Assembly: GCF_053078305.1 (NCBI RefSeq)
Contig: NZ_CP166879.1
DNA length: 64,000 bases
Strand: one strand, 5' to 3'
Shown: positions 2,633-8,537 of the stretch, one piece after another
How the letters are laid out: the number at the start of each line of letters is the position of its first letter
Numbering within the stretch: position 1 is the stretch's first letter
Translations under genes and position numbers: made by a program
Notes under the pieces: model-generated
The model's input: the letters and a program-made list of their open reading frames with translations, nothing else
Database searches by the model: none
Told to the model about the DNA's origin: nothing

Positions 2633-3543
2633 TGTATTTTGTCGACAACAATTCAGGTGTGACCGATATGCCACCACTGGCCCCCTCTCAGGGTACGCAG
2701 GTTAAATGGTTTACTGAAGGTGACGGACGCAAAGGGATCAGCCATATCGGTCAGGACTGGCTGAACATCGTGCAGGCAGAGCTGCTTGCCATTCTGACAG
2801 AAGGAAAGGTTCAGCCGGATAAGGCAAAACTGAACCAGCTGGTGACAGCCATTAAGGCAATCATTGCAGCAAACGCATACAGCCGGAAAAACAACCTTAA
2901 GGAGATTGCGGATGCAGGTGCAGAAGCACAGGCTGCTGCCCGCCGTCATCTGGGGCTGGGAGGATTATCAGGAAAAGACAGTCTGGCTGCTGCTGATGTG
3001 GGAGCACTGGAGAAATCCCGGAATTTTGACGATGTACCGGATAAACCGACGGCCCGCCTGAATCTTGATGTTTACAGTAAGGGAGAAGGCGATGAGCGTT
3101 ATCTGCGCAGGGACCAGAATGGCGCGGATATCCCGGACAAAGGAACCTTTATCGATAACCTCGGTTTACGGGAAACGGTAAATAAGGCTGCTGATGCCCT
3201 GCCATCGGGTGGAACCGCCGTGGCAGCGAATAAACTCGCCACCCCAGTAAATATTAATGGCGTTCCTTTCGACGGAACGCAGGATATCAACATCACGTCA
3301 GGAATGACGCAGTCAACCGCAGATGGCCGGTATGTACAGAATGTTCAGCTTGGAGCACAGAGCTATCATTCACCCGGAGGCAATGAAATGTCATGGAATT
3401 ACAGCGCACCTTCCGGTTGTATGCTTTCCGGTATTAACGTGCAGGAAACCGGCTCCCGGTCTGCGGACAATATCGGTGGGGTCTATTATCGCCCGGTTCA
3501 GATTTATATTAATAATGCCTGGAGAACGGTAAGTTCAGTGTAA
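2632..3543 (+). CDS. Tail fibre protein: constant N-terminal part plus variable C-terminal cassette Sv (expressed orientation)
   Basis: 303 aa ORF; its 3' third contains the left 133-bp inverted repeat; variable C-terminus after position 3290. Confidence 0.8.
   Translation: MYFVDNNSGVTDMPPLAPSQGTQVKWFTEGDGRKGISHIGQDWLNIVQAELLAILTEGKVQPDKAKLNQLVTAIKAIIAANAYSRKNNLKEIADAGAEAQAAARRHLGLGGLSGKDSLAAADVGALEKSRNFDDVPDKPTARLNLDVYSKGEGDERYLRRDQNGADIPDKGTFIDNLGLRETVNKAADALPSGGTAVAANKLATPVNINGVPFDGTQDINITSGMTQSTADGRYVQNVQLGAQSYHSPGGNEMSWNYSAPSGCMLSGINVQETGSRSADNIGGVYYRPVQIYINNAWRTVSSV
3149..3174. other. gix/pix-like recombination site (left crossover site)
   Basis: TTATCGATAACCTCGGTTTACGGGAA, a 12-2-12 imperfect palindrome closely resembling the Gin gix site as recalled. 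Confidence 0.6.
3158..3290. repeat. Left 133-bp inverted repeat of the invertible tail-fibre segment
   Basis: Perfect reverse-complement identity with 4408..4540 (checked base by base). Confidence 0.9.
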
Positions 3544-4178: not shown

Positions 4179-4407
4179 TTATGCGCTGGAAGCTGTTTTC
4201 CACGAACCATTTATCAGAAACTGAACAGGGCGATAATATGCGGTTACCGTTGCATTACCATCACCAGCGACATCAAGCCCTGTAAGTACGCATCCGTCAG
4301 GAACTTCAAAAATATTATATTGCATTCCAATCGTTGACCTTGAACCTCTTCGAATGCTTTGAACATAACGTGAGTCAGCCACAGACTGCGTCATCCCCGA
4401 TGTAATA
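4179..4407 (-). CDS. Alternative tail-fibre C-terminal cassette Sv' (silent in current orientation)
   Basis: Minus-strand frame continuous with the right inverted repeat, which encodes the same residues as the left one; C-terminal tail diverges from Sv. Confidence 0.65.
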
Positions 4408-4540
4408 TTGATATCCTGCGTTCCGTCGAAAGGAACGCCATTAATATTTACTGGGGTGGCGAGTTTATTCGCTGCCACGGCGGTTCCACCCGATGGCAGG
4501 GCATCAGCAGCCTTATTTACCGTTTCCCGTAAACCGAGGT
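4408..4540. repeat. Right 133-bp inverted repeat of the invertible tail-fibre segment
   Basis: Perfect reverse complement of 3158..3290. Confidence 0.9.
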
Positions 4541-4548
4541 TTCAGGGA
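4523..4548. other. gix/pix-like recombination site (right crossover site)
   Basis: TTCCCGTAAACCGAGGTTTCAGGGAT, inverted partner of the left site. Confidence 0.55.
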
Positions 4549-4603
4549 TGTCGTATATCTGCTTTAAAAGGCATTTTCACCTCTTTTTAAGGAAGGTAAA
4601 TAC

Positions 4604-5164
4604 ATGCTGATTGGCTATATACGCGTATCAACAAATGACCAGAACACAGGTTTACAAAGAAATGCGCTGGAATGTGCAGGATGTAAGCTGATTTTTGAAG
4701 ATAAAATGAGCGGAAAAACAACGCAGCGGCCGGGACTGAAGCGGGCACTGAAGAAACTAAAACCCGGTGACACGCTGATGGTCTGGAAACTGGACAGGCT
4801 GGGGCGCAGTATGCGCCACCTTGTTGCGCTGACAGATGAATTACAGCAACAGGGGATAAATTTTCGTAGTCTTACTGACAACATTGATACGTCAACCCCC
4901 ATGGGGCGCTTCTTTTTTCACATAATGGGTGCGCTGGCAGAAATGGAGCGTGAATTGATTGTCGAACGGACACGGGCTGGTCTTGCAGCTGCCCGTGAAA
5001 GGGGACGAACCGGTGGCAGACCCCGTCGTCTCACGCAGGAACAATACGAGCAGGTCGGGCGTTTACTGGCCGGGGGTGTCAGCCGAAGACAGGTGGCACT
5101 TATTTTTGATATCGGCCTTTCAACCCTTTATCGTTATTATCCTGCAAGCATTTCGGAAAAATAA
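4604..5164 (+). CDS. DNA invertase, serine recombinase of the Gin/Pin/Cin/Hin family
   Basis: 186 aa; N-terminal MLIGYIRVSTNDQ catalytic-serine motif; strong similarity to Mu Gin / e14 Pin as recalled; adjacent to the invertible segment. Confidence 0.9.
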   Translation: MLIGYIRVSTNDQNTGLQRNALECAGCKLIFEDKMSGKTTQRPGLKRALKKLKPGDTLMVWKLDRLGRSMRHLVALTDELQQQGINFRSLTDNIDTSTPMGRFFFHIMGALAEMERELIVERTRAGLAAARERGRTGGRPRRLTQEQYEQVGRLLAGGVSRRQVALIFDIGLSTLYRYYPASISEK

Positions 5165-5254
5165 GACGCTCCCTTTGTTGGGCCTTTACTGAATTAACGC
5201 AAAATGGCGTTTATCGGTCTGTGGATATGATAATTCTGTTTATTCAGGAACAGG

Positions 5255-7312
5255 ATGAATATTATGACGTCCAAATGGGTTCAACTATCATCAATGCCCG
5301 GAAACTTTACCGTTAAAGTTTCCGGTGGTACAGCGGCATTTCTTGAGGCTCCTTTTCCTCCGGCTGAAACGAAAGGAGGAATGACATTTGCTGACTGTCT
5401 CATCAGTTTTAATACACAGGATTGCCTGTGGGTAAGGCCAGTATCCGGTGATCCGAACGTGGAAATTACCGGAGCGGGTATTGGTGCTGTCATTCCGTTA
5501 AGTGCTGATGTTGCCGGTACTACTGAACCGTCAGACTGGGATAATGCTGAAACACATACCCGTCCGGCAGGAAATGAAACGGCTTCCAGCTCCCCTTCCT
5601 GGTATTACGTGATTGTTATAGCCGGTCAGTCCAATGCTTCATCTTATGGTGAAGGGTTGCCCCTGCCGGATTCTTATGATCGTCCTGATCCACGTATTAT
5701 GCAGCTGGCACGCAGGAATACACAAACCCCCGGAGGTATTCCCTGCAAATACAATGAAATCATTCCAGCAGATCACTGCCTTCATGATGTTCAGAATATG
5801 AGTCTGCTGAACCATCCAAAAGCAGACCTGAAAAAAGGGCAGTATGGTTGTGTGGGTCAGGGACTTCATATTGCGAAAAAAGTATTACCGGTGATTCCTG
5901 CTGATGCCGGGATTTTACTGGTTCCCTGTGCCCGTGGCGGCTCTGCTTTTACAACCGGCGCAGTTGGCTCATTCGATCCGGCAAGTGGTGCAGCCGAGGC
6001 GTCACTACGCTGGGGAGTGGATACCCCACTGTATCAGGATCTTGTCAGTCGAACGAAAGCGGCACTTGAGGCGAATCCAAAGAATGTGCTGTTATCTGTC
6101 GTATGGATTCAGGGGGAAGGAGACCTTAAAGCGACCCCGGCCCAGCATGGTGCCCAGTTTACTGCGATGGTGAAAAAATTCCGTGCGGATCTTGGTGCTT
6201 TCTCCGGTCAGTGTATTGGTGGTTCATCAGACAGTGTGCCGTGGTTATGTGGTGACACAACCTATGACTGGAAAGAGAAGAACCCGGCGGCATATGAAAC
6301 CATTTATAGCGGATATAAAAACCGGGCTTCCGAGAACATTCACTTTGTTCCACTGATGCACGATGAGTTCGGTAATAAAACCGCGACCAACCTGCCGGAG
6401 CACGACCCGGATATCGCTTCTGCCGGGTATTATGGTGCGGAATCACGGGGAGATGGCAACTGGACAACAGCATCCAGGGCAACCCATTTTAGCTCCTGGG
6501 CGCGCCGTTTTCTGGTCTCAGATCGTTTTGCATCAGCAATTCTTAAATATGCAGGTCTGACCTCTGCATTTATTGCCGGTGTGGCCCCTGATGGTGAAGC
6601 CCTGCCTCAGCCCGCGCCGGGTGGAAAACCGGAAGCTCCGACAGGTAGTCAGCCAGGAAGCAGTGAGTCCCCCCAGCCGACATCCCCGTCACTCCGTACG
6701 CTGCTTTCACTTAAAGCATCAGCAGGGGAAGCCCCGGCTCAGGGATGGAAAATTACAGATGGTACAATCCAGCTGACGGACGAAGGTAAAGCGCTGACCG
6801 TATCCAAACAAAGCGGAAAAACCTGGTCACTTACCCATGCGACCAGTGCTGCCGGAGAGCTGTTGCAGCATGGTGGTCAGTTGACCTGTAAATTCCGTCT
6901 GTCAGGTGAAGTAAAAGAAGGCCAGTTTGCTCTGGGTATTTACCTCCACACCGATACGGTCCCGGAAGGTGTAACCATGAGTGGTACAGGCACACCGTTC
7001 CTGATGGCGTATTATCTCCAGACAACAGGCGGCCAGTTAAATCTGATGCACCATAAAACAGGGGGGAATACGAAACTGGGATCATTTGGAGCCTACAATA
7101 ACCAGTGGCATACACTTGTCCTGAAGTTTACGGCGGGAAGTGCCCAGGTAACGCCTGTGCTGGATGGCACTCCGGGCCAGGCATTCCAGATGGTGAAAGA
7201 TGCACTTTCCCCTGCCAAAGATACGCTGACACTGACAGATGTCACCAAAGGGGCAACTTATGGCGTGTCTTTTGAGAGCGTTGTCCTTGAGGTTAATACC
7301 CCTGCGGCATAA
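5255..7312 (+). CDS. Prophage NanS-like sialate O-acetylesterase (SGNH/SASA hydrolase core with N- and C-terminal extra domains)
   Basis: 685 aa; core YYVIVIAGQSNASSYGEGLPLPD...CGDTTYDWKE resembles E. coli NanS (YjhS) as recalled. Confidence 0.75.
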   Translation: MNIMTSKWVQLSSMPGNFTVKVSGGTAAFLEAPFPPAETKGGMTFADCLISFNTQDCLWVRPVSGDPNVEITGAGIGAVIPLSADVAGTTEPSDWDNAETHTRPAGNETASSSPSWYYVIVIAGQSNASSYGEGLPLPDSYDRPDPRIMQLARRNTQTPGGIPCKYNEIIPADHCLHDVQNMSLLNHPKADLKKGQYGCVGQGLHIAKKVLPVIPADAGILLVPCARGGSAFTTGAVGSFDPASGAAEASLRWGVDTPLYQDLVSRTKAALEANPKNVLLSVVWIQGEGDLKATPAQHGAQFTAMVKKFRADLGAFSGQCIGGSSDSVPWLCGDTTYDWKEKNPAAYETIYSGYKNRASENIHFVPLMHDEFGNKTATNLPEHDPDIASAGYYGAESRGDGNWTTASRATHFSSWARRFLVSDRFASAILKYAGLTSAFIAGVAPDGEALPQPAPGGKPEAPTGSQPGSSESPQPTSPSLRTLLSLKASAGEAPAQGWKITDGTIQLTDEGKALTVSKQSGKTWSLTHATSAAGELLQHGGQLTCKFRLSGEVKEGQFALGIYLHTDTVPEGVTMSGTGTPFLMAYYLQTTGGQLNLMHHKTGGNTKLGSFGAYNNQWHTLVLKFTAGSAQVTPVLDGTPGQAFQMVKDALSPAKDTLTLTDVTKGATYGVSFESVVLEVNTPAA

Positions 7313-7369
7313 TCGTGACGGCCGGGAATTTATCCGGCTGTAACATCAGTTAATAAGAGTGAGGCTTAT

Positions 7370-7549
7370 ATGACATATATAAACGTCTGCCTGCTGTATT
7401 TCTGCACGGTGGTTTGTTGTCTGTTGCTTGTCAGCGGTGGTTATAAAATTATTCGCAATTATTTTCGAAATAAAATTGATGCAGCTGCCGAGGAAAAGAT
7501 AAAAAGCGGTGCTGTAATGCCGCAGCCGAAAGACTCCGGTCAGATTTAA
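7370..7549 (+). CDS. Hypothetical small membrane protein (59 aa, one predicted TM helix, Cys-rich)
   Basis: ATG with GAGTGAGG SD; hydrophobic N-terminus INVCLLYFCTVVCCLLLVSGG; below ORF-track cutoff, found by manual translation. Confidence 0.35.
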   Translation: MTYINVCLLYFCTVVCCLLLVSGGYKIIRNYFRNKIDAAAEEKIKSGAVMPQPKDSGQI

Positions 7550-7584
7550 TTTTTTGTGAACCAGAAAAGGAAAGGAGAATATTC

Positions 7585-7830
7585 ATGCCAGAGATTAAAG
7601 GCACGGTTACTGAAGAGCTTGTCAAACAGGCACTTTATTCTGAAGAAGTGAACCGCGTGCTGAAGGCGCAGGTTCGCAAGGATTTTGAGGCACAAATCGA
7701 CGCATATGTTGATGAAGTGCTGGCCCGAATGGTTGGCCATTCTCCGGCTGAAAACAGCACGGAGAATGAGCCTCAGCCCGTAGAGCAACCAGAGCCGGTT
7801 CAGCCCGGAACTGACAGTGCCATGATGTAA
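7585..7830 (+). CDS. Hypothetical acidic protein (81 aa)
   Basis: Strong SD AAAGGAAAGGAG upstream of ATG; followed by a hairpin terminator. Confidence 0.45.
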   Translation: MPEIKGTVTEELVKQALYSEEVNRVLKAQVRKDFEAQIDAYVDEVLARMVGHSPAENSTENEPQPVEQPEPVQPGTDSAMM

Positions 7831-7836
7831 CAATAC

Positions 7837-7869
7837 AAACCGACAGCTTCTCCTGTCGGTTTGATTTTC
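7837..7869 (+). terminator. Rho-independent terminator
   Basis: AAACCGACAG-CTTCTC-CTGTCGGTTT followed by a T-run. Confidence 0.55.
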
Positions 7870-7904
7870 ATGGGCGATGTATATACCAGTCAGAGGAAAT
7901 AATC

Positions 7905-8105
7905 ATGGACAAGAACAAAAAGCAGCCCGATACCAAAGGTCTGGAAATATTAAGCGCAGAAATTATCAATGCGCTACGTTCAGGACTTGATGAAAATACA
8001 TTACAGGATCGAAACTTCACCACTGCAATGTGGATAGCGATGCAGATCCTGTGTACCCCAAGATGCGCTATTTTTGCGGTTCGTGAGGGTCAGTTGACTC
8101 GCTGA
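7905..8105 (+). CDS. Hypothetical protein (66 aa)
   Basis: ATG with GAGGA SD; no recognisable family. Confidence 0.35.
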   Translation: MDKNKKQPDTKGLEILSAEIINALRSGLDENTLQDRNFTTAMWIAMQILCTPRCAIFAVREGQLTR

Positions 8106-8274
8106 TTGCCCGAATTACATCAGAAAAGCACGCGTTCCATAATTGCATAGCTGATGAATCACCAGCTGTATGAAAAGAGGTAAAGACACAACTGGTGGAT
8201 GTCATTGCTGCAATTGTGATATCAGCTGCAATTCGCGCAGCCTGTAACTTTTGGTCGGTGGTCAGTTTATCCAT
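8068..8274 (-). CDS. Hypothetical protein (68 aa), convergent and 3'-overlapping the 7905..8105 ORF
   Basis: Minus-strand ORF; second ATG has AGGAG SD; only one of the two overlapping ORFs may be real. Confidence 0.25.
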   Translation of the reverse strand: MDKLTTDQKLQAARIAADITIAAMTSTSCVFTSFHTAGDSSAMQLWNACFSDVIRAISESTDPHEPQK

Positions 8275-8352
8275 TTTCTCCTGCCTGAACAGATGCATCT
8301 CTGCTTTACAGGAGGCCGGGGAATATCATAGGATACACCACGAGCTCAGAGT

Positions 8353-8508
8353 GAAGCATTGATGCAGTTTTTTACAGATTGACCCAGAATAGTTCGCGCT
8401 ATCTGAGTCGCCATTTATGTAGTCCCGAAGTAAAGCATTGATGCAAACTTGTCTAAATCGGCCCAGCATAGTTCCAGCTATGCTGGGTTTCCCTTTTATG
8501 TAGTATCC
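8353..8508. repeat. Two imperfect tandem repeats of about 75 bp, the second with a 10-bp-stem hairpin and T-rich tail
   Basis: Shared AAGCATTGATGCA ... CCCAG-ATAGTT ... TTTATGTAGT; hairpin CCCAGCATAG/CTATGCTGGG at 8462..8487. Confidence 0.5.
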
Positions 8509-8537
8509 TGTTGATTTGAAACATACTACATATACGC

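Follow-up and report, generated by a model that had tools for sequence, protein, structure and literature searches.

The stretch of DNA analysed here, 64,000 nucleotides of contig NZ_CP166879.1 (NCBI RefSeq assembly GCF_053078305.1; hereafter the window), contains a Mu-like prophage in which an open reading frame (ORF) of 685 codons lies between a gin-type DNA invertase gene and com. We propose that this ORF is an intact nanS-p-type gene, that it is a fixed module of a lineage of Mu-like prophages, and that its product acts as a mucin sialate esterase; we put the probability of this reading as a whole at about 0.75.

A NanS-p-type esterase in a Mu-like prophage

The ORF is the single long one in its part of the window (5255..7312, plus strand, 685 aa), exactly as the original prediction, made from the nucleotide sequence without database searches, had given it, and the Prokaryotic Genome Annotation Pipeline (PGAP) calls the same ORF in the closest genome (H1; DNA identity 99.7%). 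The ATG at 5255 is a CTG in the sister allele of L002, a Mu-like phage inserted in Stx2c_JNE082796, and in the cross-lineage alignment the type-B lineage described below aligns with its start at 5264. For these two reasons the conserved start is probably the ATG at 5264 (MTSKW..., 682 aa) rather than that at 5255. The gene and the parts of its product, three modules with probably disordered linkers between them, are as follows.

5255..7312, plus strand: nanS-p-type sialate O-acetylesterase gene (ORF; phrog_143; PDB 3PT5 and 6YP6; start-codon comparison)
5264..5503, plus strand: N-module, aa ~4-83, a small all-beta domain of Mu-like prophages, occupying the DUF1737 position of Shiga toxin (Stx) phage NanS-p
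5504..5593, plus strand: linker 1, aa 84-113, Ser/Thr/Pro/Asn-rich, predicted disordered, ending in ASSSP (pLDDT <50; SSP motif)
5594..6559, plus strand: SGNH type II / SASA esterase core, aa 114-435 (3PT5 match, Pfam SASA, alignment)
6560..6694, plus strand: linker 2, aa 436-480, Pro/Ser/Gly-rich, unconserved between alleles (five-protein alignment, per-domain blastp)
6695..7309, plus strand: C-terminal lectin-like jelly-roll domain (DUF6645), putative carbohydrate-binding module (6YP6, Pfam)

We assign the product to the prophage-borne NanS-p group of sialate O-acetylesterases because of its matches to structures, to Pfam, to PHROG and to Stx-phage proteins. Residues 108-432 match residues 12-333 of the E. 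coli NanS/YjhS crystal structure 3PT5 (E=3.6e-110, 54% identity), residues 119-315 match Pfam SASA (PF03629; E=7.5e-13), and phrog_143 spans residues 65-684 (E=1.5e-273). A tblastn search retrieved 353 phage records, mostly of Stx-converting phages, with 50-61% identity to the protein, some of which are annotated as NanS, yjhS or SASA esterase. The allele itself is conserved at 98-100% in 37 genomes, and only these carry it at full length.

The predicted NanS-like SGNH/SASA core was thus borne out by the Pfam and 3PT5 matches, as well as by a blastp comparison with K-12 NanS (53.6% identity across the 321-aa catalytic domain). To these searches we added an alignment of five proteins, namely the protein studied here, a sister Mu-like allele, the Min27 protein, an Stx1a-phage allele and K-12 NanS. 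Gln125, Ser126 and Asn127 (codons at 5627-5635) and His411 (codon at 6485-6487) correspond to NanS Q18, S19, N20 and H301 and are invariant in all five proteins, as are the RGGSAF (aa 227-232) and QGE (aa 286-288) blocks. In NanS, which belongs to the SGNH type II enzymes, Ser19 and His301 are the catalytic residues, no Asp is catalytic, and Gln18 plus a Gly make the oxyanion hole (PMC9063846). The dyad that marks the family, Ser in a GQSN block and His in an R-x-x-H block, is found here as Ser126 and His411, and the oxyanion-hole residues are represented by Gln125, the equivalent of NanS Gln18, and by the conserved Gly / RGGSAF block. The original prediction had named loss of the catalytic Ser, Asp or His residues as what would count against it. 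Ser126 and His411 are kept; the Asp drops out of this test, which should read Ser/His because NanS has no catalytic Asp (PMC9063846). In EDL933 and O104:H4, the NanS-p enzymes that have been tested show esterase activity, de-acetylate mucin glycans and enable growth on 5-N-acetyl-9-O-acetylneuraminic acid (Neu5,9Ac2) (review PMC8065619), and it is from these tested alleles that we infer esterase activity of the Mu-borne protein on Neu5,9Ac2.

The N-terminal module, the linkers and the C-terminal domain

Extra domains were indeed found on both sides of the core, as predicted: a DUF6645/6YP6-type domain at the C-terminus, and about 108 aa belonging to no Pfam family at the N-terminus. The check proposed with the prediction had expected a DUF1737 domain, which occupies aa 3-53 in the NanS-p of 933W (PMC10462455). 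This domain is absent, and a different, rare all-beta module stands in its place. The N-terminal ~108 aa gave no Pfam match even at E<=10, and blastp against the Min27/phi24B-type protein yielded only E=2.1. DUF1737 was present in 0 of 36 related loci. An AF2 model of the N-module, built from 4 sequences only, shows a five-strand all-beta barrel or sandwich, and its best fold matches in BFVD are small uncharacterised phage proteins of ~90 aa. DUF1737 (PF08410) was accordingly rejected as the identity of the N-terminus on the combined grounds of the Pfam search, the Min27 comparison, the related loci and the all-beta predicted fold.

When 1.84 billion representative proteins were searched exhaustively with HMMER, 5 matched the N-module. 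The genuine ones are contig-end or frameshifted fragments in which the N-module is followed by the linker and ...AGQSN..., and all of their loci lie immediately 3' of a gin-like invertase. The match P0008 (1445 aa, 9 matching stretches) is a Gly/Ala/Val/Thr-rich repeat protein and was regarded as compositional. A word-index search with the N-module returned near-identical E. coli fragments only, no N-module was found in 100,044 species-representative genomes, and no paralogue was found elsewhere in its own prophage (best non-self tblastn E=0.12-0.13). One of the genuine matches, P0007, has an N-module 28% identical to the one studied here; in its genome, of 57% GC, the N-module plus SASA gene follows the invertase of a Mu-like prophage, where tape measure, Mu gp45/46/47/48 baseplate, tail fibre and invertible segment come before that invertase. 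In the distant Mu-like prophage L007 (57% GC), ORFs for a 58-aa membrane peptide and an 87-aa protein were seen between the invertase and the N-module-SASA gene (9426..9910), and the contig stops within the esterase gene. All occurrences of the N-module are fused to a NanS-like core and lie only behind the invertase of Mu-like prophages. There are two types, A (this prophage) and B, which are ~58% identical to each other. Judged by the sequences searched, the N-module is a rare domain confined to Mu-like prophages.

Residues 84-104 of linker 1 have pLDDT <50. An SSSP motif lies at the junction of linker 1 and the core (5582-5593, aa 110-113), and linker 2 has SESP and TSPS, with no SSP. For the phi24B protein gp84, which is processed at its linkers, SSP-containing motifs have been proposed as self-processing sites (preprint, 10.64898/2026.04.10.717836).

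The C-terminal domain matches the structure of the NanS-p C-terminal domain, 6YP6, over residues 481-682 (E=1.2e-42) and Pfam DUF6645 (PF20350) over residues 537-647 (E=1.5e-25). Four aromatics, Y510, Y515, Y540 and F611, have been proposed to bind sugar in the C-domain of the phi24B protein (PMC10462455), and three of the four are kept here as F558, Y563 and Y587.

Mosaicism and selection

DNA identity to the sister phage L002 changes sharply along the region.

4261 to ~5580: gin, spacer and N-module, DNA identity mostly 95-100%
~5580 to ~7570: core, linker 2, C-domain and DUF1378, DNA identity 27-83%
7621 onward: DUF826, DNA identity 97-100%

The left breakpoint lies at ~5580-5600, the 3' end of linker 1, where identity falls from 95-100% to 62-82%, and the right breakpoint at ~7560-7575, the 5' end of DUF826. 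Per domain, protein identity to L002 is 96% for the N-module, 68% for the core and 40% for the C-domain, and dS, at 0.09 in the N-module, reaches 2.4 in the core. The core has a dN/dS of 0.10 and the N-module one of 0.18, the latter calculated from a small number of substitutions (7 synonymous, 4 non-synonymous); both values indicate purifying selection. Type-A N-modules are joined to at least 3 different cassettes, and the L002-type cassette shares stretches of 92-96% identity with the Min27 allele. Because of the jump in identity and dS against L002, the multiple cassettes per N-module and the stretches shared with Min27, we interpret the enzyme cassette (core, linker, C-domain and DUF1378) as being swapped by homologous recombination among nanS-p alleles, lambdoid ones included. 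On the same comparisons, the N-module and DUF826 appear to stay with the Mu-like backbone.

A three-gene module at a fixed position

Two small genes follow nanS-p, and the invertase, com and mom genes enclose the whole.

4604..5164, plus strand: gin-type DNA invertase (phrog_125, E=5e-94; ~70% DNA identity to the Mu gin region), followed by a 90-bp spacer
7370..7549, plus strand: DUF1378 small membrane protein, 59 aa, with an N-terminal transmembrane helix (phrog_494, PGAP name, hydropathy 2.46)
7585..7830, plus strand: DUF826 protein, 81 aa, acidic (phrog_311, PGAP name)
8697-8713: GATC cluster immediately upstream of com, as in Mu (comparison with Mu)
8761..8961, plus strand: com (PHROG com match, PGAP annotation)
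8915..9652, plus strand: mom (PHROG Mom match, PGAP annotation)

In the Stx phage Min27, too, nanS-p is followed by the pair DUF1378 and DUF826, directly ahead of the holin gene, and almost every Mu-like locus that is long enough to show this part has the pair behind nanS-p. Because Min27 and the Mu-like loci share this order, the unit that moved between phage types is, as far as gene order tells, a three-gene module of nanS-p, DUF1378 and DUF826. As unrelated phage types retain this module, its genes may be functionally linked, for instance in the release or handling of an esterase that has no signal peptide.

In phage Mu, gin and com are separated by 94 bp with no gene in between, and the gene is therefore extra relative to Mu, as had been claimed. 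With the mom control region marked by the GATC cluster at 8697-8713, the prophage has ~3.5 kb extra between the gin stop codon and that region. The further claim that nanS-p is inserted cargo holds as far as this comparison with Mu goes, but the gene is not a lone insertion. We scanned IMG/VR with an alignment of the N-module and determined gene order by local tblastn. This recovered 34 loci, and in all 34, as far as each contig reaches, the order is baseplate J, tail fibre, gin, nanS-p, DUF1378, DUF826, (variable ORF), com, mom. Prevalence was estimated by searching 5,426 complete E. coli genomes for N-module DNA (type A at >=95% identity). Type A was found in 204 of them, many being O157:H7 and other E. 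coli that produce Shiga toxin (STEC), and type B in 28, giving ~232 genomes (~4%) for both types. From this synteny we conclude that nanS-p is a fixed, conserved module of one lineage of Mu-like prophages rather than a one-off insertion. A literature search, incomplete in its coverage, found no papers on nanS-p or sialate esterases in Mu-like phages, or on DUF6645.

Proposed function

From the homology, catalytic residues, architecture, synteny and mosaicism described above, we infer the substrate, activity, release route and host benefit as follows. Ser126 would serve as nucleophile and His411 as base, with Gln125 and the conserved Gly as the oxyanion hole and no Asp taking part. The core would act on Neu5,9Ac2, whether free or bound in mucin glycans, by taking off its 9-O-acetyl group, and the lectin-like jelly-roll domain probably keeps the enzyme on the glycans. 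The gene is probably co-transcribed with those for DUF1378, the membrane peptide, and DUF826. No signal-peptide-like hydrophobic stretch was found in the protein (over the first 60 aa, hydropathy in 15-aa segments peaks at 0.85), and because there is no export signal we propose that the enzyme would reach its substrate through lysis of part of the population after prophage induction, and/or on the phage particle. The de-acetylated sialic acids would then be open to cleavage by sialidases and could be used by the Nan pathway of surviving lysogens.

Several points weigh against this interpretation. The core is ~68% identical to the tested NanS-p enzymes and 54% identical to NanS, and it has private substitutions next to conserved blocks, among them QGEGD where the other four aligned proteins have QGEFD and CARGGSAF where they have CCRGGSAF. 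The fourth of the proposed sugar-binding aromatics is lost within a deletion in the C-domain. In Mu-like loci, PGAP labels the nanS-p genes 'DUF6645 domain-containing protein' and nothing more, and NCBIfam has no model that names the 685-aa protein. Release by lysis is argued from the lack of a signal peptide, and co-transcription with DUF1378 and DUF826 from gene order. Finally, the sequence does not tell when the gene is expressed: the Stx-phage gene belongs to a Q-dependent late operon, whereas the gene here follows gin.

Could the N-terminal module be a virion anchor?

The gp84 (NanS-p) of phage phi24B is a structural protein, in which DUF1737 (residues 1-54, with Tyr42 as a 'tooth') forms a hexamer that plugs capsid hexons (10.64898/2026.04.10.717836), and the Min27 protein of our alignment has exactly this gp84-type N-terminus. 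By analogy, the N-module may anchor the esterase to the Mu-like capsid, tail or fibre as the counterpart of phi24B DUF1737. An esterase and lectin displayed in this way would let particles stick to or move through O-acetylated mucus, or destroy decoy receptors, which is compatible with a metabolic benefit to the host. We consider such display possible but on balance doubtful. What speaks for it is that the DUF1737 position is taken in Mu-like prophages by an unrelated folded domain under purifying selection, found in these prophages only and always fused to the esterase, and that this domain stays with the backbone while the cassette swaps, the pattern expected of a part that has to fit the particle. 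The gene also adjoins the tail-fibre and invertase block, and the BFVD matches of the N-module are, as noted, small phage proteins of ~90 aa.

Set against this, the domain is known from its sequence and a predicted fold, the AF2 model being drawn from only 4 sequences, and its linkage to the backbone may only mark where the recombination-prone conserved core begins. Moreover, the N-module differs by 42% between types A and B while the major head protein is 97.8% identical, so that the two do not co-vary. The reach of this test is limited by a mosaic backbone, as sheath (76%), baseplate P (76%), the HI1506-related protein (77%) and tail fibre (64%) also differ between the types, and the mismatch between N-module and head weighs mildly against a capsid-specific fit. 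Between the two prophages compared (L044, type A, and L045, type B), identity is 97-100% in the proteins for portal, major head, tube, tape measure and DNA circularisation, and only 64-77% in those for sheath, baseplate P and tail fibre and in the HI1506-related and DUF2635 proteins.

An anchor swap is attractive because an unrelated, selected and backbone-linked domain occupies the position of the phi24B anchor. If so, NanS-p proteins would be modular displayed esterase-lectin units across phage morphotypes, in which a dock of 50-80 aa is exchanged: DUF1737 in Stx podophages, with their T=9 capsids, and a cupin-like beta-domain in Mu-like myophages. We offer the N-module as a swapped virion anchor only as a tentative suggestion.

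Transcription and the remaining alternatives

Two hairpins lie downstream of the nanS-p stop codon.

7319..7340, plus strand: GC-rich hairpin with an 8-bp stem just past the stop codon (fold; no U-tract)
7836..7863, plus strand: terminator-like hairpin, 11-bp stem with 6 GC pairs, then AUUUUCAU (terminator scan, fold)

The original prediction had given the gene a hairpin at 7321..7338 and probably a promoter of its own. The hairpin exists, at 7319-7340, and its 60-nt context folds at -17.5 kcal/mol (z=-2.67). It is not a canonical terminator, however: it is followed by AACAUCAG... without a U-run, the ribosome-binding site and start of DUF1378 lie within 30 nt, and the terminator scan did not report it. 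The hairpin at 7836-7863 folds at -17.0 kcal/mol (z=-3.57), with 0 of 200 shuffles as stable, and judging from these signals the transcription unit likely runs through nanS-p, DUF1378 and DUF826 to this point. The promoter found no support. A consensus scan, whose reach does not extend to non-canonical or activator-dependent promoters, detected no sigma-70-like site in the 90-bp spacer between gin and the ORF (5165-5254); the nearby plus-strand promoter-like sites lie inside gin (5106-5134) and inside the ORF (5264-5291), and the region-wide count of 7 compares with 7.3 expected from shuffles. In an alignment of the type-A and type-B spacers we saw short conserved blocks and no convincing -35/-10 pair. 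The terminator scan predicted no terminator between gin and the ORF, and read-through from gin or the tail operon into nanS-p is possible. An Rfam scan of 4400-9900 returned no RNA family, with one match at chance level.

These results bear on the proposal, implicit in the original prediction, that nanS-p is a classical moron, with its own promoter and terminator, induction-independent expression and constitutive extra NanS activity in lysogens. The gene is missing from Mu, there is a hairpin past its stop codon and a terminator-like one past DUF826, and the Mu gin gene is expressed constitutively and weakly; with no terminator between gin and the ORF, low-level read-through in lysogens is plausible. 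Nevertheless, we judge a classical moron unlikely. In the spacer the scan detected no sigma-70-like promoter and the number of promoter-like sites equals the shuffle expectation, the comparison of types A and B gives no convincing -35/-10 pair, and the hairpin next to the gene has no U-tract, the terminator-like one following only two genes later. Nor does base composition clearly set the gene apart: the GC content of nanS-p is 0.49-0.55, against a prophage range of 0.42-0.60 (flanks 0.42-0.50, tail genes 0.53-0.60). A cytoplasmic enzyme without an export signal would also need its substrate to be imported, and the expression of Stx-phage nanS-p goes up on induction (PMC10462455).

A receptor-modifying enzyme, which would strip O-acetyl groups from O-antigen or from an O-acetylated polysialic acid capsule for adsorption, much like the esterase tailspikes of other phages, has been raised as an idea for NanS-p (review PMC8065619), and would agree with the position next to the tail-fibre genes and with a weak match of residues 211-315 to a 'tail protein' family (phrog_25867, E=1e-6). 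We find this quite improbable, since the enzyme most similar to the core has been shown to be sialate-specific, the protein has no trimeric tailspike-type or fibre-attachment domain, and the same cassettes occur in podo-, sipho- and myovirus-type prophages with different receptors. That the gene is an inactive hitch-hiking remnant is scarcely credible: PGAP gives it a DUF name only, certain related copies carry frameshifts (L008) and neighbouring ORFs are pseudogenes in some genomes, but this copy has all 685 codons in an allele 98-100% conserved in 37 genomes, keeps every catalytic residue, shows dN/dS of 0.10-0.18 and has an architecture that persists in a distant host at an identity as low as 28%.

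Relation to known systems

The closest known systems are the NanS-p proteins of Stx and lambdoid prophages (933W L0105/z1466, phi24B vb_24B_21/gp84 and Min27 gp43), which have the same layout of N-domain, linker, SASA core, linker and DUF6645. The cores are ~67-68% identical with the same SGNH blocks, the C-domains are 40-62% identical, DUF1378 and DUF826 stand behind the gene in both, and the alleles show signs of mutual recombination. Unlike in those proteins, the N-terminal domain here is an unrelated all-beta module and not DUF1737, and the carrier is a transposable, Mu-like, myovirus-type prophage and not a lambdoid one. The position differs as well: in Stx phages the gene has stx (the Q-dependent late operon) on one side and the lysis genes on the other, and here it has the G-segment invertase and com/mom. 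The cassette has no relative above ~61% overall in the phage collection.

With phi24B gp84 specifically, the protein shares a homologous enzyme and C-domain, a small N-domain, a Ser/Pro linker and an SSP in the N-terminal linker. DUF1737 consists of one helix and three strands, whereas a five-strand all-beta barrel or sandwich is predicted here. Chromosomal NanS (3PT5) shares the Ser19/His301 dyad, the oxyanion residue Gln18 and the SGNH type II fold at 53.6% identity; it is a single-domain protein of 326 aa encoded in the NanR-regulated nanCMS operon, whereas the protein studied here is prophage-borne and has ~113 aa more at the N-terminus and ~250 aa more at the C-terminus. The right end of Mu carries homologous gin, com and mom genes, arranged alike and with a GATC cluster upstream of com; DNA identity is ~70-72% both in the gin region (Mu locus 4994-5620) and in the mom region (5971-6599). 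The 94-bp spacer of Mu is replaced here by ~3.5 kb comprising nanS-p, DUF1378, DUF826 and a variable stretch with minus-strand ORFs.

By homology, then, the enzyme family and its chemistry are known, and the architecture with a Mu-specific N-module is an undescribed variant. Under a strict definition of NanS-p, sequence comparison finds the core, the C-domain and DUF1378/DUF826, and does not find DUF1737 or a lambdoid location. NanS-p esterases have been regarded as fitness and virulence accessories of Stx phages, with enterohaemorrhagic E. coli (EHEC) feeding on O-acetylated mucin sialic acids. The same enzyme module stands at a fixed site in Mu-like prophages, hidden under the name 'DUF6645' in ~4% of complete E. 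coli genomes. Because the module occurs in Mu-like prophages, with a cassette shuffled with lambdoid alleles and a replaced anchor domain, counts of nanS-p per strain should include the Mu-borne alleles. The domain swap is also a natural experiment on whether NanS-p is primarily a component of the particle or an enzyme of benefit to the host. If the N-module were an anchor, particle-borne editing of mucus glycans would be a general trait of E. coli temperate phages and not a peculiarity of Stx phages.

Other features of the prophage

The right end of the prophage was placed as follows.

9780..9781: prophage right end at 9780, with the chromosome resuming in yciQ at 9781 (homology to other Mu-like prophages ends there)

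The sequence from 9781 on matches yciQ in ~4,000 genomes, and the prophage insertion truncates this gene, which encodes a DUF2207 membrane protein (ORF 9759..11030, minus strand). None of the complete E. coli genomes, 5,426 in all, has the junction 9780/9781, in agreement with random Mu-type transposition.

Upstream of gin lie Mu-type baseplate and tail-fibre genes. Two inverted repeats of 182 nt (3157-3338 and 4360-4541, 91% complementary) flank an invertible region resembling the G segment, which holds alternative tail-fibre C-termini and a tail-fibre assembly gene and lies next to gin. In the closest genome (H1) the invertible segment is in another arrangement.

Between the three-gene module and com, a variable stretch measures 425 bp here (7868-8292) and 190 bp in the closest genome. 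It is followed by an ORF on the minus strand (8326..8646; phrog_26524, with no function assigned in PHROG), the counterpart of which is annotated as frameshifted in the closest genome. The distance from the GATC cluster to the start of com is ~45 nt here versus ~77 nt in Mu, and the sequence of the Mu C-activator site (TTATGCCCCAATAA) was not recognised at 8697-8761. Because of this shorter spacing and the unrecognised C-activator site, mom control may differ in this lineage. In two Mu-like phages inside Stx phages, L002 (11429..12481; LC727881) and L006 (LC727895), the position after com is taken not by mom but by a 350-aa ORF bearing C5-cytosine methyltransferase motifs (GTPCQAFS), which puts a different DNA-modification gene under the com leader.

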